64,000 bases of DNA, from assembly GCA_964019425.1 (NCBI GenBank), contig OZ025787.1, positions 620,001 through 684,000 on the forward strand, written 5' to 3'. Both the position numbers and the translations under genes were made by a program. Below the pieces are notes generated by a model. It did no database searches. It was not told the DNA's origin and saw only the letters and a program-made list of their open reading frames with translations. Position 1 is the first letter of the stretch; each line of letters begins with the position of its first letter. This DNA comes from Flectonema sp. DT1601 (lineage: Eukaryota). Shown here in pieces: positions 46,051 through 64,000 of the stretch.

Positions 46051-48437
46051 CCCTTACACCACCAAAACCCCCAAAATAACGGGTCCAAAATTTTGCTGTT
46101 TTTTCAAAAAGAGAAAAGGTACCCCCCCAGAAAACCTATGTACCAAACCGGACACAACCACCCCTACGGGGTCAATAGCACCTGTCACCCGCACACCTAA
46201 CGGTGCGTACCTTGGTGCGTTGTTGCACATTCAGCAGAACTAACAAAGTCGGCACTCAACGGTTTCCATTCATAGCAGCTGCATGTTATTCCCTTCCTGT
46301 ATTTTGAAAGGGATGATGTTTCTGCGCAACATCATGTCAGAGGGAGCCCAAGTAAAGAGAATGCCAAATCACGGCCAAAATTAAATCGAAAAATCAGCCT
46401 GTTTTTTGAGCTTGTAAAAGCCCTCTGTGGTAGCAGAAACTACGCGAACAACTTGCATCATAGCACAGCAGGTGCAGATACACAAGACGTCGAAGATTAC
46501 CGCATCGAGGCTGATAAGCTCGGAAAATGTAAATAACATCGATCCCAGATCATGGAACTTCATTAGTAACAGTGCAGCTACTGGGCTGGATTTATAACTT
46601 TCGCCTCTTTACCCCACTATTGGGCATGCTGGATTTTCGAGAAGTCGGCGGCTTAGGAACATCACAAGGAATTTTGTAGTTTTGGAGGGTGTGATACCTT
46701 TTGAAACATGGGTAAGCACAAAGCGCTTGATTGCATCGCTCACAGTAATACATTATTTGTATGCGCTTTGCGTGAACTGCACACTGACGAGCCTTTTCCA
46801 TCTTTCCGAGGTAGTCCCAAAGCTGGCTTGAGTCGATCAGGGATTGATACTGATGGTGGAGAAGGCGGTACTGATGGTGTTATTAATAGTGTTGGTGCTG
46901 CTCGGGTACATTTAAAGTACCTAGAAGCTGCGCAATCAGCGCCAACTTAAAGGAGGAAAATCTCTTGCTTCTCCAACCAGATTCACTCCTATCCGTCCAA
47001 ACTCCACCGTGTCCACGTCGCATCAGAATAAAAGAATTCAAGATGCACGTCTCCAATATAAAAATAAAAACCTTCAAATACCAGCGAGGAGATTTCTGCG
47101 TCCTACGGGTTCTATCCTTGATGGCACAGCGAGGTCTGCGCCTCCCTTCATGATGTTGTACTTCGCCACCTGCTGTGGCATCGGAACAGAGGATTTTTTA
47201 TACTTGGCCCGAACTTTGCCTGACCTTCTGCAGGTTGTCCTTCCCGTCTTTCCACTTCACGAGGTGGACCTTGTGGGACTGACTCCATACGCATCATACT
47301 TCTTCAGCTGTTGTTGGGACTCTTGTCTTGTAGGGCGGCCACGGTGTGCTTTTTTTTTCGATATCAGATCTTTATCAAGGTCTTTTCTGTCTTTTCTCAC
47401 TGCTCCAACAGCCTTTAGCCTACTTTCAGCAGCCTGACGAAAAACTTGTACCGAGAAAACCAATTGTCGAAGCACACCCAGTATCGATAAGCTTCAGTAA
47501 GGTTTCGAACCACTTTGTCCGGCTTACGGGAATCCTTCCTATGGTTCTTACCAACATAAAAAATACACTTCAGAGTATATCCCTCGGTCACACAAGGTGT
47601 AAACCTTGATTCCGAATCGCTTTCTCTTCATCGGAGAGTAGAACATGAACGATATACGTCCACGGCAGGGAATTATTGTTTCGTCGACACTTAAATAGCG
47701 GCCTGGTGTTACCGCGGATGACCACTTAGGGAGAACAAGGTCGAGCAGTGGACGCACCTTGTGAAGTTTATCACGCTTCGGATCACTAAAATCGGGAGCT
47801 GGCAATGTCGCAGAGAAGTGTAAATTTCTCTGAATTTCGGCAAAGCCATTACGCGAAAACCCTTTTGGAAAGTAGGGGGTCGACAGCATGTCATTTAAAC
47901 TCCAGTAATCTTCCAGGTTAGATTTTATTATTAGGTGCGTCAGTAGCGTCCCCCAACAAAAGCCCTCAGCTCCTGTACTGGTTTCGAATTTTCTTCCCTC
48001 TGTGCATAGCCTCAGAGTTTTCTTTCATCAGCTGGAAAACTGATTCTCTGAAGAAAAACTCAAAAACCTGCAGTTCCGAGTTGCCTGCAACTTTAACCTT
48101 TAACGTTTCTTGGAAACGTGACTTTATTCTTGGTAACCTTGTTACCTCCCCTCCCCATTCAGGGTCAGATACTTCGTCAAACAACGAATCGGAGCACACC
48201 GACGGCGGATCAACTTCATCAGAACTGTGGACCGACATATTTCCTAAGTTGATTTTGGCCAGCTATAGCGAATGGAAAAATTACTATTCAATAAAAACTA
48301 TTGCGACGCAACACGTAAGGAACACAAAAGACGTCGCAATAATACCTCTTCCGTGAAATCGTTGCACTCAGAAATGCAAAATTTTCACTTAGCAAAATTT
48401 TTTTTTTTTTCAGACTGATATATCCGGTGGTGTAAGG
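46051..48437 (-). mobile_element. Decayed piggyBac transposon
   Basis: TTAA|CCCTTACACCACC at the left end and GGTGGTGTAAGG|TTAG at the right. Fragmented minus-strand transposase with SVDETII, FDNWFS, YNIMKGGAD and a C-terminal Cys-rich domain (CERCNQALCAYPCFKRYH). Confidence 0.92.
46592..48238 (-). pseudogene. piggyBac transposase with multiple frameshifts and stops
   Basis: The DDD motifs are distributed over several short ORFs in different frames. Confidence 0.88.
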
Positions 48438-50197: not shown

Positions 50198-50356
50198 GCA
50201 AACAGAACAAATCTTTTCTTTTGTTCTTCGTTAAAACTACTTTGAGACACGGTCTTCCGCTAATCATCGCACGAACAGAACATATCTTTTCTTGTTCTCG
50301 TTTAAACATTACCTGCAAACAGAGCATATCTTTTTTTTGTTCTTGTTAAAACTCTA
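50198..50356 (+). repeat. Three imperfect ~42-bp direct repeats (GCAAACAGAACAAATCTTTT...GTTCT..GTTAAAAC)
   Basis: Copies begin near 50198, 50269 and 50315. Confidence 0.7.
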
Positions 50357-50774
50357 TTTTAACAAAGCTTGCGAATCAGCCTGCGGGGGAGGAGGGGCGG
50401 CTGGGGGTAGCGACGGGACCCACGCCGGAACTGGCAAGCCTGAAGTGCGAGGGAGTAATTAGCCTTCCTATACTGTATGCACCTGGGAAAGAGAAGTATA
50501 CCTAATTGAATGAACATGCAGTTAACAAGTCTGAGATCACAAAGAAGAATCTACACTGTGGTGCAGATTACTTCTGCGTAGGGGTTGTACCGGGCCGTTT
50601 CGATTCGACGGGACACCGGCGGGGGAAGGGTGGGTGGGACTTAATTTAAATATAAGTTTTCTTGTGATGAAGACAGGGGTGTGAGAACTGATAAAGGGAT
50701 AGAAATATTTGATATCGTCAGAAAACTAATAGAGACATTGACCTATATAAATAAATAAGGAACGGCGATTATGT

Positions 50775-50846
50775 GGCTACATAGCTCAATTGATAGAACG
50801 CCGGTCTGAAATAATGGCGGTCGAGGGTTCAAAACCCGCTGACGGC
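50775..50846 (+). ncRNA. tRNA-derived (Phe-GAA-like) element in repeat A2, with a broken acceptor stem
   Basis: 72-nt canonical spacing: A box TAGCTCAATTGATAG, anticodon loop CTGAAAT, B box GGTTCAAAACC, then T5 at 50849-53. Confidence 0.75.
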
Positions 50847-50980
50847 GGTTTTTGTTTGGTGCTCAGTTTCGGTGGCAAATTACCTAAATGGAATTTTGAT
50901 AATTAGCCTTCCTATACTGTATGCACCTGGGAAAGAGAAGTATACTTAATTGAATGAACATGCAGTTAACAAGTCTGAGA

Positions 50981-52700
50981 TCACAAAGAAGAATCTACAC
51001 TGTGGTGCAGATTACTTCTGCGTAGGGGTTGTACCGGGCCGTTTCGATTCGACGGGACACCGGCACCACCACCACCACGCGAGTTAAAGAACGACCCCAA
51101 CGCTTGTTCAACCTTCGCTCTCGTTCCGTGTGAGACTTCCTCTCGAGAAGGAATGTCTGCTGGGTTTAGCTTCGTGCTTACCCAGGCAAGGGAGTAGGAA
51201 CATTTCAAAACTAAAAGGCATTCAATCGCAGTTATCAAACACCTGTTGAGACTGTGTGAGCGAACACACATCTTCTTCCTAAAAGCACCACAAACTGTAG
51301 TGTTGTCAACCCAGATGGAAAGGTGGTCGGCCTTTGAGTGTCTGTCCAAGAGCGTCCGCTTCAAGGATATTTATATGTCGGTCTTCACCAGCAGGCCATG
51401 CCGCACCAAGAATTTCCAGCTCACCTGTTTTCCAAACGATGACACCTCCCCATCCCTGCAATGAGGCATCTACAAACACTTCGGCAGTCCTCCCCTCTTT
51501 CTGCTCAGGCATAATTATTCTCTCCTTCTGCACAGCACCGATCCACATTTCTAATTCCCTCCTTACTGAACGGGGCAATTTTAGTACCTGCTGTACTTGT
51601 AGGGTCCCCTTGTTCAAGTAATTTGTGACCCTGCGAAGATACTTCAAGCTAAACCAGTACTTCCCAGGTGGAACTCCAACAATGGAGCTGGCATGCAACA
51701 GGCGACCTCCTAAGGACTCCAACTCCGATGCAGTCAATGAATCAAGGTTGGTGTTCTTGATTTTTCTCCCAATCTTGGTCCCCAAGCTCACCCTGTCCGT
51801 ATGGTGATCAAAGGTGACCCCCAAGAACTCATACTCCGGAGAGAGATCCACAGTATCACTTGGTTTCCATGTGATGTTTGCCATTCTGGCAAAGGAGTCC
51901 ATCCTCTCAGCTGCGCATTTAACCTTCTCCTTGGGACCAAATAACCTAATGTTATCGATCCACCAGTGAATCCAACGGCATCCTGCAGGGACTTCAAGAC
52001 TGGATTCTACCAGGTCTGCATACCTGAGGAGTCAACTTCACTCTTCAGTTTCTCTGATTCGGCTGGGAAGGTTTATTCTTTGACTCGACTTCCGATGGGT
52101 CATGTGTGTGCCCCAGAATTGATGAACACCATCGCTGCAGTAGTTGCTGGTGACCCGCTGTTCGTTAAGAAAGAATTTGCGGAGGAGGAAACCTCCGAAT
52201 GTACAGCATCCAGGTAACAAGAAATGTGCTGCAGTGGAACGAATGGTTCATATCCCCCAGACGAGATCAGTTCGTTCTGCTCTTTTGTCCAGAGGATGAA
52301 CCGCTGTCTGTTCCCCGTCTCCCTCTCCTCTCATACACTGTAAATGGTACATTCCGAGACAGCGGTACAGAATCACTCGGCACTGCAATACCACACTCAA
52401 CCAATTCTCTTGCATGTTTCTCTGCCAACTTCGAAGTTGCCCTCTTCGAGAGCCGTGCATTGACAGAAGAATCCCTAGGAAAGAAGGTGAGGTTCCAAAC
52501 ATAATCAAACCTCTTCAGGACCGATGGCAACATCCTCCCCCTTACAGCTGAAACATCCATCTTAGGTGTAGGGGCCACATGTAGTGGTGAAGATATCTCC
52601 TCCTTCGTTATGGGGATGCGCGTGCTCTTTGTTCTGTGCGTGAACTGCGCTGCTACGCCCCGCATCACATCCCGTTCACTCGCATTCTTTGATCTATCAA
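50981..52700 (-). pseudogene. RT/RNase H of the YR element, disrupted by frameshifts (~52330, ~51340) and an internal inversion
   Basis: Minus strand: NVPFTV, RQRFILW, WIDNIRL, EFLGV, and RH motifs VDAS, HINILEA, VDNTT, NPADIPSR. Plus strand: RDFKTGFYQ and RLPMG. Confidence 0.85.
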
Positions 52701-53915
52701 CTACAGGAAACAGGTGACATCCCCTGTCTTTAACGCCCTCGCCATTGCAATTGGGTTTCCGCCGTACCTCAGCGTGGTGTCTGAAAGGGCCGACACTCCT
52801 GCATGCTTGGCCAGCCTGCTTATCAGCCCTTCTGTGAGTCCTTGCTGCTCTTGGTCCGATGCCAGAACCTCCAACAGATGACTTATCGCACCTCTTTTTA
52901 TTGAGTGGGCGGTGTATCTTTTCATCCTGCCGTCCTGCTGGAACGTTTTCACTAATTTTGACGTGTCCCACGGGTGTAGTTTTTTGAACTCCCCCATCGC
53001 ATCCAGCAAGATCTTTATCTCTTCTGTGTGATTCCCCTTTATCACCGTCCATCTGCTTGGCGAGTAAGGGTTTGCCCTCCTTCCCTTCGGCGTGCGGAAC
53101 CAATCTATAATAATCTCTGACGGACTTACAGAGATGAACTGGTCCCTTGAGAGCGCTGCGGTCTCGCCCCATCTTGATGCAGTCTTCCAGCACACTAGCA
53201 TTGCCAAGTGGGTCTTTAAGTCTTGCCCCCTTGCCCAATCCACCAGGTCGAAACTTGTCATTGGCGTTGCCTGTTCCAGCGGTATTGCCGCCCCGTTCGC
53301 CCTCAGTGCTGCAGCCAAGCTCAACAGCGGTCCGTTTTCTATTCCGATCCTCCCCATCACTGCAGACAGACTCTTTGCATAAGAGAGAAGCCCTTGCACT
53401 GCCACACCTGTCGCCATCACGAACAGAACAGCCGAGCTTGCGTTTGCTGGTTTCTCCTTTTCCCTTGCCCAGGCCCGAAATCTTCTCCACAGATTCCGCC
53501 TGCTTGCTGTTGTCTTTGAGGCCCACATCTTCTCCAGTGTTTCTTGAAGCTTTTCTGTCGCCTCCATGTATGTGACGGAATCCTCGGCATGCCGCCTCTT
53601 CGTCCCCTCTGGGCATCCCTCCATCATGTCCAACAGGATCTTCCCAACCACATTTCCTTCTAATCCTTCTGAGGGCATTGTTTCCGTTGAATCTGCGATC
53701 TCTTCTGTTCCAACTGAGCTTATTTTCATCTCCCTTCCGCTGGGGAATCCTCGGACTGCGGATTTTACAATGTTGTCCGGGTCTTGAACGATTAAACTTA
53801 CAGATCCTCCTAACCTTGCTTTTAGTCGGCTGCTCCTCAACACCTGTCTTGAGTGCTTCTGCATAAGTCTTGCGGGCTTTCTCAACTTTAACTTTGGCAA
53901 TGGGGATGTTTCCAA
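52701..53915 (-). CDS. Tyrosine recombinase of the YR retrotransposon
   Basis: Catalytic set R (SRWGE), K (PKG), HxxR (HSIKR), H (AKH) and Y (LRY) is intact. Start codon uncertain. Confidence 0.88.
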   Translation of the reverse strand: METSPLPKLKLRKPARLMQKHSRQVLRSSRLKARLGGSVSLIVQDPDNIVKSAVRGFPSGREMKISSVGTEEIADSTETMPSEGLEGNVVGKILLDMMEGCPEGTKRRHAEDSVTYMEATEKLQETLEKMWASKTTASRRNLWRRFRAWAREKEKPANASSAVLFVMATGVAVQGLLSYAKSLSAVMGRIGIENGPLLSLAAALRANGAAIPLEQATPMTSFDLVDWARGQDLKTHLAMLVCWKTASRWGETAALSRDQFISVSPSEIIIDWFRTPKGRRANPYSPSRWTVIKGNHTEEIKILLDAMGEFKKLHPWDTSKLVKTFQQDGRMKRYTAHSIKRGAISHLLEVLASDQEQQGLTEGLISRLAKHAGVSALSDTTLRYGGNPIAMARALKTGDVTCFL

Positions 53916-53984
53916 TACTTGCGTGTCTAACCTTCGTTTTAGGAACGTTGGTTTTGTTGTTACTTGCAGGGTCCGGTCGGCTGG

Positions 53985-55223
53985 TCACTTCGCGAACCCT
54001 CTCCCGTTTCCCGACGATGGATACGTAGAGACAAACGATCTCCCCCCTTTCCGTTTCGGTTGTTGCATCTTCGCATTTCTATTTCTCTTCGCTATTGCGT
54101 TTGCTTTCTCCAGAGGGTCCTCCGATGCAACTTCTAAGATCATCTCCAACTCTGATCTCTTCGTACCATCCTTGCAAAAGTAATACTGCATCCGCAGTTG
54201 CTCCAACAGCTCGTTCCCCAACTCCACAAAGTGCGGGTTCTCCTCCCACCCTTCAACGTACTCCAAACCGAGAACGAAGTTCTTCAACTGCCTGAAGAAG
54301 CCAAGTAGCTGGCCCCCACCAACCTTGTACTCCAGACCGTTCACATATCGCTCCCTGATCCCATGGATCAGTGCCTCGGTCTTTCCTGACTTCATAACGG
54401 ATGCCCACTTTGTTACATCCCTGCCTGCAGACGGATCAGTCACCTCCCGTGTCATCGCTTCGTTCGACCCCGGTGCTGGTAGTTGCTGTGCTGCTCCCCC
54501 GACTACTGGAACTTGTTGAGCCGTAGTCAACCCGTTCTTCAGATCTGCTATTTCTTGTAATATTTTTTGGATCACTTCCGCATTCTGCTTTTGCTGATCT
54601 CTCTGCTGTTGTGTGATTTGCTGGATAACGCTAGCTTGTTGTTGTTGTTGTTGGGCCTGTTGTTCTCTGAAGGCCTCCCACATGCCTCCGATGTTCTCGG
54701 CTTTTTCAGTGGCCTCCCCAACCCTTCTCCTCACTGATTGGCTCTCCCTCTGATACTGGCTAAACGCCGTCTGCGTTTCGCTTCTCAGCGAGTCGAACCC
54801 CTGCTTGGTATCACTTCTCAGTGTGTCTGTGCTCTGCTGCAGCGATCCCATCGCATCCGCCTCGTCGTGCGTCACCAGCCTATCCGACCCCCCCTTAGAT
54901 ATCCGCTCGCTCATCCGGGCGGCGCTCTGGTTGACCAACTGCAGGCGGCTCCTTGATAACACACCAAGTATTACTAGACACTTATTCATCGAAAGTGTCT
55001 TGGCCGCATCATTGGAGATCCCGAGACACATGGCCAGTGTGCCTTGGATCAACCTTCTTGTCTCCTTGTCGGATCTCAATGTACTTAAGTCGATGCTAAA
55101 GGGGATGCTTGCAACCAGCTCGTCCAGATTGATATTATCGAGCTTCTTTGGTGGTTCCTCACCCATCTGCGCCTTCCAAGTCTCAATTAAGAACTCAGGG
55201 AACTCAAAATTTACACGAGTCAT
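53985..55223 (-). CDS. Gag-like ORF1 of the YR retrotransposon (412 aa, coiled-coil/Gln-rich)
   Basis: First ORF immediately after repeat A1. Assigned by position only. Confidence 0.7.
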   Translation of the reverse strand: MTRVNFEFPEFLIETWKAQMGEEPPKKLDNINLDELVASIPFSIDLSTLRSDKETRRLIQGTLAMCLGISNDAAKTLSMNKCLVILGVLSRSRLQLVNQSAARMSERISKGGSDRLVTHDEADAMGSLQQSTDTLRSDTKQGFDSLRSETQTAFSQYQRESQSVRRRVGEATEKAENIGGMWEAFREQQAQQQQQQASVIQQITQQQRDQQKQNAEVIQKILQEIADLKNGLTTAQQVPVVGGAAQQLPAPGSNEAMTREVTDPSAGRDVTKWASVMKSGKTEALIHGIRERYVNGLEYKVGGGQLLGFFRQLKNFVLGLEYVEGWEENPHFVELGNELLEQLRMQYYFCKDGTKRSELEMILEVASEDPLEKANAIAKRNRNAKMQQPKRKGGRSFVSTYPSSGNGRGFAK

Positions 55224-55401
55224 TATTTAACTTAATTTAAATATAAGTTTTCTTGTGATGAAGACAGGGGTGTGAGAACTGATAAAGGGATAGAAATATT
55301 TGATATCGTCAGAAAACTAATAGAGACATTGACCTATATAAATAAATAAAGGAACGTTTTTTATTTATTTAATAAATAAATAAAAGGAACGGCGATTATG
55401 T

Positions 55402-55473
55402 GGCTACATAGCTCAATTGATAGAACGCCGGTCTGAAATAATGGCGGTCGAGGGTTCAAAACCCGCTGACGGC
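55402..55473 (+). ncRNA. Second, identical tRNA-derived element in repeat A1
   Basis: Same sequence as 50775-50846. Confidence 0.75.
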
Positions 55474-55527
55474 GGTTTTTGTTTGGTGCTCAGTTTCGGT
55501 GGCAAATTACCTAAATGGAATTTTGAT

Positions 55528-55682
55528 ATTCCGGGTGATTGGGATGGGAATTGCCTGTTCAGGAGTGTGTGCCAACCCCTGGGGACGCCAGAGGGGTGGA
55601 AGGGCAGACATGGAGAGCTCCGCAGGAGAACGGCAGGGTACCTGACAATTTGCAGGTTTGCGGGCGTTAGAAGAGGATGGTG
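55528..55682 (+). pseudogene. OTU-like cysteine protease fragment
   Basis: IPGDWDGNCLFRSV...HGELRRRTAGYL resembles the OTU Cys box (DGNCLFRA...LR). Confidence 0.6.
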
Positions 55683-55746
55683 GCCTTCCTATACTGTATG
55701 CACCTGGGAAAGAGAAGTATACTTAATTGAATGAACATGCAGTTAA

Positions 55747-58700
55747 TATCATTAATTTTAGAACAGAAAAGTGAGAATAAGAAAAGTAGAGATCAATAAA
55801 AGAAAAGTATTCATTTCTGCAGTTTCCTAACATCAAAGGGTAATAGAATATGTAGTTTCAGGCCTTAATCTTATACTACTTGTCCCTTTTTAGGCCTTCA
55901 TCAGTAAGTTCTAAGGGACTTCATTCTATGTTGAAGTTGCTATCGTTCAAAGATAAAAATCCATCGGAGCTCGCCAGGATAGGGCTAGCAATGTTTATTT
56001 GCTTTTGCTCAATTTGAATTTTTGACGTCTGATCGTTTCACTATTACAGTCGAGTTAATGGATGAGTCGTCATCCAATTTGCGTTTTACTTTATCTTCGC
56101 ATATCATCAAAGGTCCTATATTCGCTGGTGTCATCGTAACATCCATATCAGTCTGAGCTTTTAATGGTATCATATGGAAACTATACTCTGTAGTTCGGTA
56201 CATCTTGTCAAAATGATCGAAAGGGAGTCTTAAATCTTTTGTGCCTTTAAGAATGTCTCGGATGATCATGGACTCAAATGAGACTAGCGCAACAATAAAG
56301 TGAGTCATCCTTGTTTTCGCTTTATGTAGAATAAGTGCTGCGGCTGCTTCAGGATAATCGAAATCTGCTGGGTTAACGAAGTACTCGATTCTTCTGTTGA
56401 ATTTAGTCATGCAAGCCATGTTAAGTACTTGTAGCGAGAACCAACCATCTGGTGATGGTTTATGCTCTGAGTTGTTCGGTTCTACTTTAAGAGATTCTTC
56501 ATAAAATCGCTGTTGGTAGTTTTGCAGAAAACTGAAGTTAATTCTATCGATATATAAATGATCTGCAATGAAGTTGAGCGCTGCCCATCCGCATTCTCCA
56601 CCGAGAAGACCTTCTCCTGATGTTTGATGTAGGGATGGTGGAAATCGTTTATCCAAGGAATGGCTTGTAGAGCCTGTGTGGTTAATTGTATCCTTTTCGA
56701 TGCTTAATGGGACTTTGTGACTAAACTTCTCAAAAGTAAGGTTGATACGTCGACGCATTGCAGCTGCTGTATTACCATCATCAATGTGAGAGCTAATGAA
56801 GCGGAGGCATGCTGCTCTGATATTGTCAGATTTATAGCCCCGGTTGAGTAATCTATAAGTTACCGCTTCAAGTTCCTGTAAAAAGTCTGCCTGGTTGTTG
56901 CAGATTTTTAGAGCTCGTAAGATCATGGTGGTAAAGATACCTGAACCCATTGATTCTTGAGCTGCGGAATGCTGATGAGTAAACCTTGTTGGCGTAATAT
57001 GCCAACCCCTGGCTTTGTCATTAACACTTAAACGAATCCATCGTTTATTTGTGTTAGTGATCTCTATTCGGATACGAATTCCTATATAAGAGACATCATC
57101 AATATTATTCGAAGTATCAGTGTAATCCATTGAATATAGACTTGCTGGTGGAGGGTCGCAACTCCAGGTGAGGAAGTCGTCGATGTATCTACACGAGTGG
57201 TCATGTTGCCGAGCTAAGTCTAGATTTTTTGCTTCAATTAAAGAATCGATATATGCGGATTCAACTCTATAGCAGTAGAGATTTGCTATATCGCTACTGG
57301 CGTTGCCACCCATTGGAATGCCTATTGTTTGTCTCCAAATATAACCTCTTAATGCAATAAAGGAGGAGTCAATACAGAATTCAAGTAATTTTTGACATTC
57401 TGCAAGCGCAAGAGAAGGGAATCGTGTAGGGTCACTCGATTCAAGACGTAAGATATTTTTGAAACTAAAGGCTTCTTGCAGTGCTTCACTTACTTTAGTT
57501 TTAATAGCGTTGTGTGGTAGGCGGGTGTACATTGTTGTAAAATCAAAAGTCTTAGGGGATAATTTTTTCAAAACCATCAAATTCTGTTTAATCGAACTAG
57601 AGACTTCATCATCTGATTCCACAATCCAGTATCGTTTGAACCGTGAATGCATATCTTTCTCTTTCAATATAGTCATCGCATTTTTAAGGATACTAGAGAG
57701 ATGTTGGTGCGCATATGTTGTTGCTGTTGCAGGTGCAAGATTATGATCCTTATCGTATTGTCGTTGTTCTGCTGTACCCGTGAAGGATGAGACACCAGTA
57801 ATCCATCTCATCCCGATAGCTGATTTGTGTAATTTAATCATTCCATATAGGTGTGGGAGTCGATCAGAGTGGCGGGCATTGATTGAAATGTTCATGTTCT
57901 TGAGGTTGGCTAGTAGAGTTGGTTCGTCTGATGTGATGCGTTCATAAGAATCACTTTGTAGCTGCTCTCGAAGTAAAAGCAAATAATTTATTTTACACAT
58001 GTAACCAATATCGTGCTGTCCTTTGTCAACTTTAAGAAACACAAACTGAGATTGAAGATTCTGAAGTTCAGTCCATGCTTTATTTGATAATGGTGAGTCA
58101 AGAAAGCTTAAGTCTTTACTTAATTTAAGCTGCAATTGTTTAAGAATTGTGTTTTTAAAGATCGATTTAAAGTTATCGCCAACGTTCTTGTATGCGTGAG
58201 TTATATATTCAGTAATATCATTTTCAAGTGATTCTAATGCAGCTGATGGGTGCACTGGGACTCTAAATTTTTGACCTCGTGCGAAGAAGTCTCTTAGTTC
58301 TTCTGAGACTGGTAAATCAATAGCGAGTCCGCAAGAATGGCCGTTGTATTTTAAACTATTCAGTTCTTGAGTACTGCAATTGCAAGTAGATTGAGTCGGG
58401 GAGTCTGAATTGATGCTTGTTGAAGATGCATTTAAGACGATATCACCAACTGTTGTTCCAAGTTTGTTACAGATGCGTGTTCTTTCAAGAGTTCTTAGAC
58501 AAGGACAGGTTGCTTTAACTTCATCACATCTAAGAACAGCGCCAAGACCAATACGATCTAATGCTTTGTGGCCAAGATTCAGTTTCAACCAGTAAGTGTC
58601 CGAATCCTTCTTCTTGTTTTCCCTTCTGAGATTGGCAGGATTTAGTCTTTGCATGAAACAATGCTCCAGCTGTTTTACGCGGGCAGTGTAATGTTCTTGA

Positions 58701-59841
58701 AAAAAGTTACTTCTAAGAAACTGCAAGACTTTTGTAGTGGAGCGTGTCTGCCAACGCGAGAAGTCGTATTCAACGAATTCTTCGTCAGTAAGCTTAAACA
58801 AATAGTTAAGCTTTGACGGGATCCATTTTTTATCCGTTGCGACTTGAAAAGAAACACCTGTTTCTAGTGTTATTGTTGTTGGTTGCAATGTATTGGAGGA
58901 CGTTGTGCTGCTCACATTGTAACCGTCATCTGCTACTTCGTTGAAGTTGTAGAAGTTTTCTGTAGCAAGATGTTGTTGTCTTACAGGTGGAGGTTGGCGG
59001 TTGTTTCTTGTGCGATTTCTGTTCGTACTCAATTTTGGTGCATAATAGCCACGCGTATTTAATAGATTTTTAAAGGAATTAATATAATACTGTTCACGTG
59101 GTGCGGCAGCTCTGTAGAAATCCGCTGCGTTGTTGTAATTGCAATCCGGAATCTTTTCTAGCGGCATGGCTAGGAGTGGGAATCTCTGCTTTGCCAGGAA
59201 CTCATAAAGCTTGTTCCCCTGGTAGCTGTTGTCCCTTGAGTGCTTTTTCGCAGCATACCAGTGGGAATGAACTCGCTTCATTGTAGAATTATACGTTTGC
59301 CCTACGTATACTACTTTCTGGTCTGATCTTCTAAAGAGTGCATAAATGACTCCGGGGGTACGCATTCCGGGTTGTCTGCCTCTTATTTTGCGGCGTTGTA
59401 AAATTTTCCTTTGGAAAATATGGCGTTGACGGTTACAGTTACTCTCGTAAACTGACCAATCTATTCCGCCGTTTCGCTGCTTGTTTCTGTGCGCAGCTCC
59501 TTCATTATGCCAATTAAAATGGGCTTGGCTAGAATGCCAGTTTGCGCGGGAACGTCCATGTTGGCGTCGAATTCTATGTTGTGGGTGTTGTGTAAAACTG
59601 TGTCTCACTTCTCTTACTGATGACTTTCTCCATGGATTAGAATTGTAAGAGGGAGGCAATGCTCGTTCAATGATTAGACGCATTTTACCAGCACCTACGG
59701 ATCGAACTGCTGCACTGATTGCAGCAAATGGGAGCTCTTTCCTGTTTTTTTGCTCTATCATAATTTTTAAAGTGCTTCCTGATTGCACTATCTTCCTTAA
59801 CTGGAAGTCTCTTAAAGGTAGCACTCTAAATAGTGCTGTCC
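55747..59841 (-). mobile_element. Penelope-like retroelement with N-terminal endonuclease (Naiad/Chlamys-type), 5'-truncated, 15-bp TSD TGAACATGCAGTTAA
   Basis: TSD at 55732-55746 and 59842-59856. One long ORF with GIY-YIG followed by RT. Hammerhead candidate in the 3' UTR. Confidence 0.9.
55852..55919 (-). ncRNA. Candidate non-circularly permuted hammerhead ribozyme in the PLE 3' UTR
   Basis: Minus strand reads GUCCCUU-agaa-CUUA-CUGAUGA-AGGCCU-aaa-AAGGGAC-aa-GUAG-UA^-UAAG-auua-AGGCCU-GAAA-CUAC. Predicted cleavage is between 55874 and 55873. Confidence 0.78.
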
Positions 59842-59848
59842 TGAACAT
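56009..59848 (-). CDS. PLE polyprotein: GIY-YIG endonuclease, reverse transcriptase, C-terminal Josephin-like domain (1279 aa; the ATG is supplied by the TSD)
   Basis: Endonuclease: GVIYAL...VYVGQT...KR...H...REQYYI...LN. RT: KVDKG, YGMIKLHK, FDFTTMYT, GIPMGG, RYIDD. C-terminus: ECGWAALN...GWFSLQVL...THF. Confidence 0.9.
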   Translation of the reverse strand: MFRTALFRVLPLRDFQLRKIVQSGSTLKIMIEQKNRKELPFAAISAAVRSVGAGKMRLIIERALPPSYNSNPWRKSSVREVRHSFTQHPQHRIRRQHGRSRANWHSSQAHFNWHNEGAAHRNKQRNGGIDWSVYESNCNRQRHIFQRKILQRRKIRGRQPGMRTPGVIYALFRRSDQKVVYVGQTYNSTMKRVHSHWYAAKKHSRDNSYQGNKLYEFLAKQRFPLLAMPLEKIPDCNYNNAADFYRAAAPREQYYINSFKNLLNTRGYYAPKLSTNRNRTRNNRQPPPVRQQHLATENFYNFNEVADDGYNVSSTTSSNTLQPTTITLETGVSFQVATDKKWIPSKLNYLFKLTDEEFVEYDFSRWQTRSTTKVLQFLRSNFFQEHYTARVKQLEHCFMQRLNPANLRRENKKKDSDTYWLKLNLGHKALDRIGLGAVLRCDEVKATCPCLRTLERTRICNKLGTTVGDIVLNASSTSINSDSPTQSTCNCSTQELNSLKYNGHSCGLAIDLPVSEELRDFFARGQKFRVPVHPSAALESLENDITEYITHAYKNVGDNFKSIFKNTILKQLQLKLSKDLSFLDSPLSNKAWTELQNLQSQFVFLKVDKGQHDIGYMCKINYLLLLREQLQSDSYERITSDEPTLLANLKNMNISINARHSDRLPHLYGMIKLHKSAIGMRWITGVSSFTGTAEQRQYDKDHNLAPATATTYAHQHLSSILKNAMTILKEKDMHSRFKRYWIVESDDEVSSSIKQNLMVLKKLSPKTFDFTTMYTRLPHNAIKTKVSEALQEAFSFKNILRLESSDPTRFPSLALAECQKLLEFCIDSSFIALRGYIWRQTIGIPMGGNASSDIANLYCYRVESAYIDSLIEAKNLDLARQHDHSCRYIDDFLTWSCDPPPASLYSMDYTDTSNNIDDVSYIGIRIRIEITNTNKRWIRLSVNDKARGWHITPTRFTHQHSAAQESMGSGIFTTMILRALKICNNQADFLQELEAVTYRLLNRGYKSDNIRAACLRFISSHIDDGNTAAAMRRRINLTFEKFSHKVPLSIEKDTINHTGSTSHSLDKRFPPSLHQTSGEGLLGGECGWAALNFIADHLYIDRINFSFLQNYQQRFYEESLKVEPNNSEHKPSPDGWFSLQVLNMACMTKFNRRIEYFVNPADFDYPEAAAALILHKAKTRMTHFIVALVSFESMIIRDILKGTKDLRLPFDHFDKMYRTTEYSFHMIPLKAQTDMDVTMTPANIGPLMICEDKVKRKLDDDSSINSTVIVKRSDVKNSN

Positions 59849-61329
59849 GCAGTTAACAAGTCTGGGGTCACTTAGAAGAATCTACACTGTGGTGCAGATT
59901 ACTTCTGCGTAGGGGTTGTGCTGGGCCGTTTCGATTCGACGGGGCACCGGCACCACCACCAGTGGGGGCGGCGGTGCACACCCCGGTGGTCTACTCGAGG
60001 GTGGGGGGATCGACCCAAGAGGACGTCGGTGAGATGGATCCGGTGGCGAACAAGGACCGGATGGAGGCACGCGAGGCACCCGTCGGGGGAGCACCGCGGG
60101 GTACACGTCCAGGGAAGAGGCGGGGTGTGTCCCCCGGACGCGAGTAGTAGGGGGGCAGGCGCAGCGCAAGCTGCTCCTACTGGTGTCGTCTGGAACGCGG
60201 AGATGGAGAAGCTGGGGGCGGCGGCATGCCTGATACACATGGGGGCGCTCGACAGGAGGTTCACGTGGTCGGGCTGCCTACCGACATGGGACGAAGCGAC
60301 GGCGGAGTACGTGGCCGGGGGGTTAACTGTTCGAGTTTGTACGTAAAATACAAATGTTTTGTATCATAGACAACGTAACGATAATTTAACATTAGTTCTG
60401 AGATGCAAACCCGCAAACAGTGGCTAAAGGTAAAGGTGTTGGTGTAGGTATACACTCTGCGATTGACGTAAATACTTTACATTATAATAAATGTTTCTAA
60501 CTCATCTGCATACACATCTCTTTTTCCGTGTTGTCATTCAGTGCAGTACGGAATCGAGTTATTCAATTTTGAATGAATCGTGAGCCCTGGGAAACCAAAA
60601 CCAGGGTATAATGTAATACGGCAGAGTGTAGTTTCACCTACAAATCACTTGCTTAAAATCTTGTTCGCTATCGGTCTCCGGGAGATATTTAGCCTTAGCA
60701 GAGGGATTCCTGCCAATTAGCTCAGCATTCCCAAACTGAGCGACTCTTGCTGACTGTGAAGGTAGACTGGATGGCTGCTCAACAATTCTTTGAAAAAAAT
60801 ATGTTAGCAAAAATTGCTAGTTCGTAGCACACTACTGGCGGAGCAGCACTCACCTTAAATAAATTATGGTGGTTGCATGATCCAACAAATAATGTTGGGG
60901 TGACGGCATCGACGGGTTTTGGGCTAAGACATTTAATTGGCAAAGTCCAGGGTGGGGAATGTATTCAAAAAGAAAACAATCACCTGTGTCCCTGTATGTT
61001 CTATACGCGAACATGTCAGAGTTCTCACAAAATTGACCTTCATGGTTAAGGGTTGCCTCAGTATTTCCTTTAGTTTATGTAACAGGAATGTACTTTCTTT
61101 CAATAAAGAAAACAAAATGACGTAAGATAGATTTACATTATTTGAATTATACGAATTACAATAATATTTATCTCTAAATGTTGTCCTAATTCAAAGGGGC
61201 TGCGGGCCAACTCAGGTAACTGACAAAGAAACTGGACGACGGACGACGGACGCACAAGGAGGCAGAAGGGCTGAGACCAGCACAAGAAGTGGGACAACCC
61301 GAGGAAAAAGAGCGACCCCCGCCGAAGGA

Positions 61330-61400
61330 GGAGAAGCTGTATGCGGTGGCGGTGGGATGGAAACCGGGAGTGTATGCATCGTGGGGGTCAGCCCACGCAA
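61330..61400 (+). pseudogene. RNase H1 N-terminal hybrid-binding (Cauli_VI/viroplasmin-like) domain fragment
   Basis: KLYAVAVGWKPGVYASWGSA matches the YAVxxGxxPGVYxxW motif. It sits in a GC-rich island with no long ORF. Confidence 0.65.
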
Positions 61401-64000
61401 ACCCGCAAACGAAGGGGACGAGAGGCCGGAAGGCAAAGACGGGGGCAAAGGGGGCCGGAAAGGAGGACCCAAGTCCGCAGGTCGCTTGCAGGTTTGCTGC
61501 AAGCGGAAATGGGAGAGTCCACCCCGAGCTCAGGTGAACGGCAGGCGAGGAGGTACGCGATCCTCAGTGCCGATCCGCGGTGTGAAAGCATGGCCTAACG
61601 ATCCTTTGGTCTCGCTTCATGTTCAAGGGATGAAGCCGGGTTTGACAGAAAAATTACCACAGGAATAACTGGCTTGTAGCAGCCAAACGTTCAGCCACAG
61701 CGACGTTGCTTTTTGATCCTTCGTTGTTGGCTCTTCCTAGTTATTCATTACTTTATCATCATTTTCTCTCTCAGGTGCAATACAGTGATGGAAAGCTAAT
61801 TATCAAAATTCCATTTAGGATATATCCGTGCTTCGATGATGGAGGTTATGAACTTGGAAGCGGTAATGCTACTGAAAAACGTGCATGAAAAAAAGAGCAA
61901 AAGGTTGCTTTTCTTCTTACTACATCCCCATCTGTAGTTTATCTCACGTTTCTATTTTATTGAAAAGAATGAAATGAAAGATAACCTTAATACTTATTTC
62001 CATCACAGGGTAGAATTGCAGCACATTACAGAGATAAGTTCAATAAAGAACTTGATTGCTTTGGATTGATTCTTTTCAAAAGGAAACCTCAGCACAAGCA
62101 GCAACCTCTGTCGAGTTTGAATTACTTTTCCAAATCCTGGCCTCTTACCTTCTAGCCTGGGGAATGTAAGAGAAGAGTTAGAATTAACATTCATCGTTAG
62201 TGATATCTTCTCAACACCTGCACCCCTCCAAACTGTTGTGTATTCATCATTTGTAATAAAAGATCCCAACATTGAATCCATTTTCCACTGCCAGTATTTC
62301 TCATTGCCATCGGTTGTTTGCTTCGGTCTCTTTGTCTGTCTCTCTTCTTTCTAAGTTTTTCATAACCAATGCGTAGTATTCTTTATTCGGTGTAGCATAA
62401 AGTGATTATTCCTCTTTCTTTATTAGACGTGAATAAACAGACTGCAGCATCTGTTGAAGAACTGCACACAGTGTGAAAGACTCCTGATGTTGATCCTACA
62501 ACAGATTGGGATTCATCCTCATATCCACATGTAATAAACCTCACTTGATACGTCCCCCATCTGAGATGTTGGATACATTCTTGGCGTATGGAATCGAGTT
62601 ATCAATTTCAAACAATCGTGAGACGAGCAATTACGTATGCTTGACAATAGCTACTTGATAGTTTTTCCATATCACTTGGAGGATGTCGCTGTAATAGAAA
62701 ATACTCAGGTACTTGAATGAACATTGCACAACAATAAGCCACTGCTTTACAGTAGGCCTTGAGTGAGGCCGGGTAATTCCATAAATCAAAACATATACAG
62801 CAGACTAAACGCTACATAAGTGTAAAAGAACGGTACTTGGTTGCTCCTCACAGGTTGTGACTCTGGGAAGCAACAATAATAGATTTCGTTTTTAAGCAAT
62901 AATAGAATAGTAATCCTGACAACACCAAAACATATACTTCAAGACTTACCAGAATTGACCCCTTGCCCGCAGCTCGCATGAAAGTCGAGTGAAAAATAAT
63001 AAAAAACCATTCAGATTAGCCTTATATTTTGTTGAACGCAGACAAAATCCTGTCGCACGGGGAAAATAAATCATGACCATAAGAAATATCGGCTTTCAAT
63101 CTGAATAGTTTCTTCCCTGACTACGTCGGTACAAAAAAAAAAAAAAAAAACATTTGCTGCTTATTAGTTGGGCACGCGTTTATTATCTTTTTTTAAAAAA
63201 AAAAAAAGAAAGATCGTTATAAATATGGTATACTATAATAGGAAACAAGTAAACAAAACGAAGGACGACGTTTTTAAATAGTATGAGTGGCTGGACAAAA
63301 AAATTCAAAACTATAATGTGTGTTTTGTAAAGCAAAATTGCCTGACAAAGGCATAAAGTGTAAATGTAGTCCAGCAAGCTCGGATAAATATAATTTTTTT
63401 AACGGTTTATTCGTACAAAACAGAAACAGAACAGTGCAAAAGCTCGATCATGGTCGCAGTGAAGAATTATTTCAAACAAAATAAAACACCTAACGAATAC
63501 ATAAAACAAACTGTGATCGGGTTTCAAAAGAACTCCACTGTAGACCACTGGGCTAAAACGCCGACAATTATCTTCGAGAGGGGTCCGAAAAGAATAAATT
63601 ATAATAGAATTGCACCCTACTAATCCACAGGGACAGGGGAAAAGTTCGATTGTCGTCCCGACGCGCAACTTGGTGACAACGGTGGAGACCAATCGTGGAT
63701 TTCGGAAGTAGAAGGGATGCTAACTCGGGAAACAGAGGAGGGGTGGGCCCCTCGAGACCCACAACTTGGAGATATCGGTGGTGACCAATCATGAACACCA
63801 GTTGTCGGAGTGACACTACATTGGGGAGGTGTGGATGAGTTGTCGGATCGTAGAGTGTGTATTTGATCACGCAAAGCGAAGCATTCCGTTGAGGGTAAGA
63901 ATTGACCAAAGTGGGAAGTAATTGGTGAAAGTGGTGGAGAGTAAGGGGTGAGCGGATTAGACAGCAGGACACTGTTTTCCCCAAATTGAGAACTCACACA

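Follow-up and report, generated by a model that had tools for sequence, protein, structure and literature searches.

The window, a stretch of 64,000 nucleotides, contains on its minus strand a Penelope-like element (PLE) of the Chlamys type whose only open reading frame (ORF) ends in a Josephin-like domain. This domain is predicted to have the Josephin fold, including the helical insertion, and a Cys-His-Asp triad is predicted at the Josephin positions. An earlier note on this DNA had proposed that such a domain is fused to the C-terminus of a PLE reverse transcriptase (RT), and this is borne out: GIY-YIG, CxC, RT and the domain lie in one ORF. The novelty that it implied does not hold, since Craig et al. 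2021 (PMC8557442) report a C-terminal Josephin motif in three Chlamys families of Chara braunii (Chlamys-1/4/6_cBra). The finding of the fusion is therefore mainly a confirmation, because the bare fusion is already in print; what is new is the evidence on fold and triad, a probable new host group, and a C-terminal slot in which the protease is interchangeable. The features are listed in Table 1.

Table 1. Positions of the element, its parts and the neighbouring retroelement in the window
Feature	Position	Strand	Basis or remark
PLE of the Chlamys type, 4095 bp; one copy, truncated at its 5' end and lacking a pseudo-LTR	55747..59841	-	bounded by duplicated 15-mer
Target-site duplication, 15 bp, element 3' end	55732..55746		duplicated 15-mer
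Target-site duplication, 15 bp, element 5' end	59842..59856		duplicated 15-mer
Single uninterrupted ORF, 1277 codons within element	56009..59841	-	about 1350 aa if full length
3' UTR, 262 nt, no hammerhead match	55747..56008	-	Rfam scan
GIY-YIG endonuclease at the N-terminus, Chlamys type: no Naiad-like CCHH or CxxC fingers	59048..59353	-	Pfam below cut-off, alignment with P0003
CxC motif as in Naiad/Chlamys elements, aa 500-502	58376..58384	-	motif according to PMC8557442
PLE reverse transcriptase and thumb	56777..58084	-	DKG aa 619, FDFTTMY 779, GIPMG 854, YIDD 899
Josephin-like papain-fold domain, aa 1085-1240	56162..56629	-	profile, fold searches
HQTSG motif	56615-56629	-	start of the motif span
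ECGWAALN motif	56573-56596	-	same frame
DGWFS motif	56435-56449	-	same frame
THFIVA motif	56288-56305	-	same frame
IRDILKG motif	56243-56263	-	same frame
EYSFHMI motif	56168-56188	-	same frame
Predicted catalytic Cys1097, start of long helix (model helix 17-31)	56591..56593	-	18/18 covering rows
Predicted catalytic His1194	56300..56302	-	17/17 covering rows
Predicted third triad residue Asp1209	56255..56257	-	16/17 covering rows, one Glu
VIPER/TATE-like tyrosine-recombinase retroelement, terminal repeat split by PLE	50456..59961 (50456-55746 and 59842-59961)	-	ORF order by eye; repeated ends
Neighbour, gag-like frame	53985-55226	-	by eye
Neighbour, YR-like frame	52701-53984	-	by eye
Neighbour, RT-like frame	52267-54078	-	by eye
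Neighbour, RT/RH-like frame	50981-52031	-	by eye

The PLE is considered to be a discrete insertion with target duplication, because the flanking 15-mer is also found unsplit, once each, at 50511 and 50955 in the terminal-repeat copies of the neighbouring element, which represent the empty site, and because a contig of sequencing run X1, perhaps from another copy of the repeat, joins 55731 to 59842 and thus has the joint without the PLE. The insertion target is a non-microsatellite repeat, inside the split terminal repeat of another retroelement. The stop-to-stop frame of 1290 codons (56009-59881, minus strand) carries the GIY-YIG, RT and Josephin-like motifs, and its first 13 codons derive from the target, not from the PLE. 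Two near-identical proteins from other records, P0015 and P0179, extend 73 residues further at the N-terminus than the window copy; this copy is therefore regarded as 5'-truncated, without 73 N-terminal codons. Chlamys elements form pseudo-LTRs by partial tandem insertion; no pseudo-LTR or internal terminal repeat was found in this single truncated copy, and an Rfam scan of 50300-62000 (E ≤ 1) gave no hammerhead ribozyme, its matches being two LSU rRNA pieces only. Eight of the ten ORF variants in sequencing runs X1 and X2 are synonymous, as are all three in the Josephin-like domain; these variants come from single short contigs at a depth of about 2, and some may be errors.

Assignment to Chlamys follows from ORF features (both RT trees described below were built without the published Chlamys consensus proteins): the GIY-YIG endonuclease stands N-terminal to the PLE RT in one ORF, CxC and DK(G) (aa 619-621) are present, and a hammerhead is absent. 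The Pfam match of the endonuclease is below the cut-off (aa 177-226, E 0.14), and the segment aligns with that of the relative P0003. By eye, in comparison with the Naiad-type proteins P0046 and P0110, the CCHH and CX2-5CxxC residues are missing from it. Pfam RVT_1 gave no match in the window copy and a weak match in P0003. The starts of FDFTTMY and GIPMG are 75 aa apart; for comparison, the insertion in the fingers of Chlamys PLEs is 20-40 aa long. Between the RT thumb and the Josephin-like domain lie about 50 aa, and a tail of about 50 aa comes after the domain.

The motifs quoted in the earlier note are real: all of them lie in one open minus-strand frame, at aa 1085-1238 of the 1290-codon ORF. 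Its assignment of the domain is upheld by a profile made from the Pfam-supported Josephin domains of six relatives, with the window left out. The window domain scored 16.6 bits against this profile, and none of 1000 shuffled versions reached this value, the best being 6.3; Josephins also came first in both fold searches. P0003 was the sole RT relative obtained from a word-based search (7989 scored candidates), with 26% identity over GIY-YIG and RT, and it has a Josephin domain above the Pfam cut-off at the position equivalent to that of the window domain. A second profile (A2), from a 25-row alignment with the window and four close copies among its rows, matched ataxin-3 with an E value of 4e-7, covering both catalytic halves, and the Cys and His of the window align with those of ataxin-3 through it. 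The domain is remote from known enzymes: Pfam PF02099 did not match the window domain or protein, phmmer with the domain alone gave nothing meaningful among PDB sequences, and a word-based protein search with the domain alone scored 0 of 206 candidates. The sole Pfam families matched by the domain alone were Longin (E 0.02) and C39 (E 0.12). The Longin identity was rejected, the matches being short and spurious. A USP12/46/21 identity was also set aside: the profile matches are confined to the His box, and with the deeper profile ataxin-3 scores better. The domain seems to be under constraint: in a sister family, its two halves are 71% and 57% identical to those of the window, versus 78% for the RT and 42% for the end tail.

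The structure of the domain was predicted with AlphaFold2 and compared with known folds, as the earlier note had proposed. The model obtained from the 25-row alignment, which contained Josephin-type relatives, was papain-like, with a pLDDT of 83.5 and a pTM of 0.79; single-sequence prediction of the domain gave a pLDDT of 38.7. In VIA-align against 48,161 chains, Josephin-2 (6pgv) ranked first (Z 13.6, rmsd 3.9, 133 aligned residues) and ataxin-3-like (3o65) second (Z 12.6, rmsd 3.4, 151 aligned), the next Z being 9.7; C39 peptidases were at Z 9.4, about 4 Z units below the Josephins. Foldseek placed ataxin-3 (1yzb) first with a TM score of 0.63 (E 2e-4), and C39 peptidases were close behind (E 5e-4). 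An Atlas feature search was led by C39 peptidases at 0.92, although no more than 139 of the 256 features were in common.

The Cys-His-Asp triad suggested by the earlier note is retained as a prediction: it is kept in the rows counted in Table 1, even though the distant rows share just 10-26% identity. In Josephins, a Gln at position -5 from the Cys has an oxyanion role. This canonical Gln is missing: the window domain has Leu there, and the residue is absent from 13 of the 14 PLE domains listed. It is seen in P0166 and P0167, two Josephin fragments of probably cellular origin. The equation of HQ with the HEKQ of ataxin-3 in the earlier note has to be abandoned, as Q1086 is at -11 from the Cys, not at -5; it is not kept in the Flectonema relative. 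Residues 1-15 of the model, where a substitute for the Gln would sit, have a pLDDT below 50. Because the Gln at -5 is missing, the domain is named Josephin-like, not a canonical MJD enzyme.

A complex of the domain with yeast ubiquitin was also predicted. The score was 0.41, versus 0.00 for the best control; at least 91% of the contacts are common to the runs, and the pLDDT of the partner is at least 87. Of the solved pairs, 51 of 78 passed the mark, as did 2 of 108 mismatched pairs; the passes at 0.60 or below included only 5 solved pairs but all 4 passing mismatches, so that a pass in this range is more often wrong unless the complex is likely beforehand. It should be mentioned that the pass may stem from memorisation by the predictor, because Josephin-ubiquitin complexes have been solved (3o65, 6pgv). 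The model weakly suggests that the domain may bind ubiquitin.

The predicted fold of the domain resembles that of ataxin-3, ATXN3L and Josephin-2 (MJD, PF02099), with two inserted helices that follow the catalytic one; a G-x-F-S motif is shared, and the Cys, His and Asp are at matching positions. It differs from these enzymes in that its identity to solved Josephins is 12-17%, the Gln at -5 and a Pfam match are lacking, and it forms part of a retrotransposon protein. Bacterial Josephin-like DUBs and clippases (bioRxiv 10.1101/2024.07.24.604956) also have a divergent Josephin fold; PcJOS among them (Z 9.7) matches the window model less well than the eukaryotic Josephins do.

Chlamys-1/4/6_cBra have the same arrangement as the window element, namely an N-terminal GIY-YIG without CCHH, then CxC, RT and a C-terminal Josephin-like motif, and their endonuclease segments resemble that of the window by eye. 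The Chara ORFs are, however, about 1800 aa long and have a second C/H-rich motif, whereas the window ORF would be about 1350 aa with a 50-aa tail without such a motif. The Chara elements target (TA)n or (CA)n, unlike the window element. The available text of PMC8557442 calls the Chara Josephin homology weak and gives no fold or triad test, and diplonemids, to which the host of the window probably belongs, are not among the hosts named in its section 9.

Dualen/RandI non-LTR elements also have a Josephin-like domain in an RT-bearing protein (PMC8557442, PMC13405545), and LINE proteins with Josephin and OTU are described in the latter. These belong to an unrelated element class with a LINE-type RT, and in the examples that PMC13405545 gives in its available part, the Josephin lies at the N-terminus. 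Ginger1 DNA transposons have one C-terminal slot with OTU or Ulp1, never both in the available account (PMC2836005), which also mentions Mutator elements with Ulp1, Helitrons with OTU and a Trichomonas transposase that carries a C19 domain. The difference is that Ginger1 encodes a DNA transposase with two alternating families, whereas the PLE sample has an RT with four. Neither a USP, Ulp1 or OTU domain in a PLE nor a PLE in diplonemids was found in the literature outside Repbase Reports and most subscription journals. The words 'Penelope' and 'PLE' do not occur in the main text of the Diplonema papillatum genome paper, and the available parts of PMC10318531, PMC6431247 and PMC11167929 contain nothing on PLE proteases.

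The survey of related PLEs that the earlier note had advised gave more than Josephins. A phmmer search with a 1199-aa query against 1.84 billion representatives found 1849 proteins (E ≤ 0.001), of which the best 150 were analysed as relatives (153 proteins in the whole set). The end of the RT thumb is reached by 122 of these 153, and 50 have tails of at least 60 aa. Pfam was run on 47 tails: 46 of these 50 (the window, P0003, P0053 and P0139 excluded) and that of P0040. UCH/USP was found in nine (eight above the cut-off), Josephin in five (four above), Ulp1 (Peptidase_C48) in one, above the cut-off, and OTU in one, below it. In all, 16 of the 47 tails have a DUB/ULP family, 31 have none, and two kinds never occur together. 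Josephin PF02099 was matched above its cut-off by P0003, P0029, P0043, P0097 and P0109; labels given by eye (Josephin in P0017 and P0073, Ulp1 in P0027 and P0045, OTU in P0090) are outside the Pfam counts. The counts are lower bounds, because the USP of P0186 was missed by Pfam and found with a local profile. Most USP tails keep the Cys and His boxes; the USP-like tail of P0023 (Lacrimia lanifica) has neither.

The fusions in this slot are unlikely to be all artefacts of gene models, since a single frame of 1412 aa, that of the full-length P0181 (Diplonema papillatum), encodes GIY-YIG, the RT motifs and UCH, and since the architectures of P0014 and P0110 were found again in several records. 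P0005, a PLE protein fused to kinesin, is such an artefact. In P0006, which is near-identical to the window family, aa 896 of the RT is joined in-frame to aa 1083, and this join places the Josephin-like domain behind half an RT. PLE proteins of Diplonema papillatum, among them P0008 (KAJ9462022.1), P0181 (KAJ9437456.1), P0183 (KAJ9472448.1) and P0205, are labelled 'Ubiquitin carboxyl-terminal hydrolase 26' or 'V-type proton ATPase subunit a3'. Several proteins with the former label are thus retrotransposon proteins, which affects DUB gene counts.

Among the best 150 of the 1849 proteins, the closest named relative is P0004 (54% identity), which derives from a transcript assembly of Flectonema neradi and covers the RT and the Cys half of the Josephin-like domain; the other nearest are P0008 and P0011 (Diplonema papillatum) and P0023. 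We take Flectonema and Lacrimia to be diplonemids. A diplonemid host is considered probable, because the nearest named relatives are diplonemid and the neighbouring element has a VIPER/TATE-like layout. This would extend Chlamys elements to the Euglenozoa.

In a FastTree tree of 121 RTs, tails of at least 80 aa occur in 41 of the 56 rows of one half, versus 3 of 65 in the other. The module therefore seems to be dispensable for PLEs, given also the 31 tails without a Pfam match. An IQ-TREE tree of 34 chosen rows pairs the window with P0004 (100/99), inside a group of 13 rows with modest support (83/94), of which seven have USP; a Josephin-bearing trio is sister to this group. The module was likely swapped, because the closest RT relatives of the window mostly carry USP. 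The AU test rejected a single clade of Josephin-bearing RTs (p 1.8e-5) and did not reject the monophyly of an 11-row USP group without the window (p 0.059), both groups having been chosen after the tree was known. A regain of Josephin inside a USP clade is hence unsupported: a single ancestral Josephin that was later replaced fits equally. The simplest history would be that, close to the lineage of the window, USP took over from an old Josephin tail on one or more occasions, and that Ulp1, OTU and the USP of P0110, whose tree placement carries a long-branch warning, were separate gains. P0110 has a Naiad-type endonuclease (CxxC and CCHH-like residues), an RT and a strong USP (103.8 bits), and this USP is likely a separate capture.

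In target-primed reverse transcription, the nick in the target is made by GIY-YIG, and the RNA is then copied by the RT. The Josephin-like domain is probably catalytically active; its substrate seems somewhat more likely to be ubiquitin or a ubiquitin-like protein than anything else. We tentatively prefer the reading, given a little under an even chance, that it works as a deubiquitinase and thereby shields the protein of the element itself. By analogy, it may act in cis, an idea that follows a suggestion for Dualen cited in PMC8557442. The tail domain would remove ubiquitin or ubiquitin-like tags from the element protein, which would then survive long enough for copying and insertion; in sister lineages, USP would have taken the place of Josephin. 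The anatomy, the insertion, the conservation of the triad and the alternation of protease families are the observed part of this mechanism. To our knowledge, removal of ubiquitin or SUMO is the sole function common to Josephin, USP, Ulp1 and OTU. Tag removal is favoured over self-cleavage because the four slot families share only that chemistry, and protection from ubiquitin-dependent turnover is plausible, somewhat the more so because unrelated DUB/ULP families occupy the slot in relatives.

The same enzyme might instead act, as a deubiquitinase or deSUMOylase, on host repair, chromatin or silencing proteins at the insertion site, where the fused endonuclease and RT would deliver it. Ulp1, a SUMO protease, and OTU in the slot fit signalling marks as well as degradation marks, and an equivalent proposal has been made for Ginger1 transposases with OTU or Ulp1 (PMC2836005). 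However, the present evidence fits targets in cis and in trans alike, and we regard action on host proteins as rather unlikely. Unlikelier still is a domain that binds ubiquitin or another partner with little or no catalysis, be it a weak enzyme, a pseudo-enzyme or a passenger in slow decay. The frequent absence of the canonical Gln from PLE domains, the loss of the catalytic boxes in P0023 and the many relatives without any such domain agree with this, whereas the retention of the triad at such low identity and the mostly synonymous variants speak against it. The polyprotein processing put forward in the earlier note finds no footing in the linkers between RT and protease: LxGG occurs in 0 of 22, and they range from 41 to 688 aa with no common site. 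The slot is, moreover, shared by four families of differing specificity. A C39-like peptidase with a non-ubiquitin substrate is suggested by the fold ranking and the Atlas list given above, but the Josephins are clearly ahead in VIA-align. Self-processing or a C39-like activity thus appears improbable.

Beyond the protection of a single element protein, the C-terminus of Chlamys and Naiad elements may be a plug-in slot repeatedly filled by Josephin, USP, Ulp1 and OTU in a general ubiquitin/SUMO arms race that appears undescribed, a view that we hold at not quite even weight. Hosts would use ubiquitin or SUMO to restrict these retroelements, which would answer with a fused eraser; the exchange between Josephin and USP inside the diplonemid radiation would be part of this. 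The swapping of different ubiquitin/SUMO proteases in one slot points to control of retrotransposons by the host at the protein level, and the slot offers matched natural pairs, Josephin versus USP on closely related RTs.

The neighbouring element, whose terminal repeat the PLE splits, has a gag-like ORF followed by overlapping YR-like and RT/RH-like frames, a layout described for VIPER/TATE of trypanosomatids (PMC12278014). Pfam gave no support for the YR, gag and RT/RH labels. This copy looks frameshifted, because both sequencing runs have 11 more bases behind 51330. A stretch of 154 bp present only in this repeat copy (55529-55682, plus strand) encodes an OTU-like fragment of 34 aa (Pfam OTU, E 0.013) and ends 65 bp from the 3' end of the PLE. 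By eye, the repeat also has tRNA-like stretches at about 50770-50845 and 55397-55472 (plus strand), which neither ARAGORN nor Rfam called. Elsewhere in the window, positions 6628-42013 (plus strand) hold four tandem units, each with a subtilisin (Peptidase S8) frame and then a long Thr-rich mucin-like frame that ends in a transmembrane-like segment, and a DDE_Tnp_1_7 transposase fragment lies at 47548-48024 (minus strand, E 2e-20). Eukaryotic LSU rRNA fragments are located at 60652-60901 (minus strand) and 61672-61717 (plus strand); scattered 28S pieces have been described in the Diplonema papillatum genome paper.
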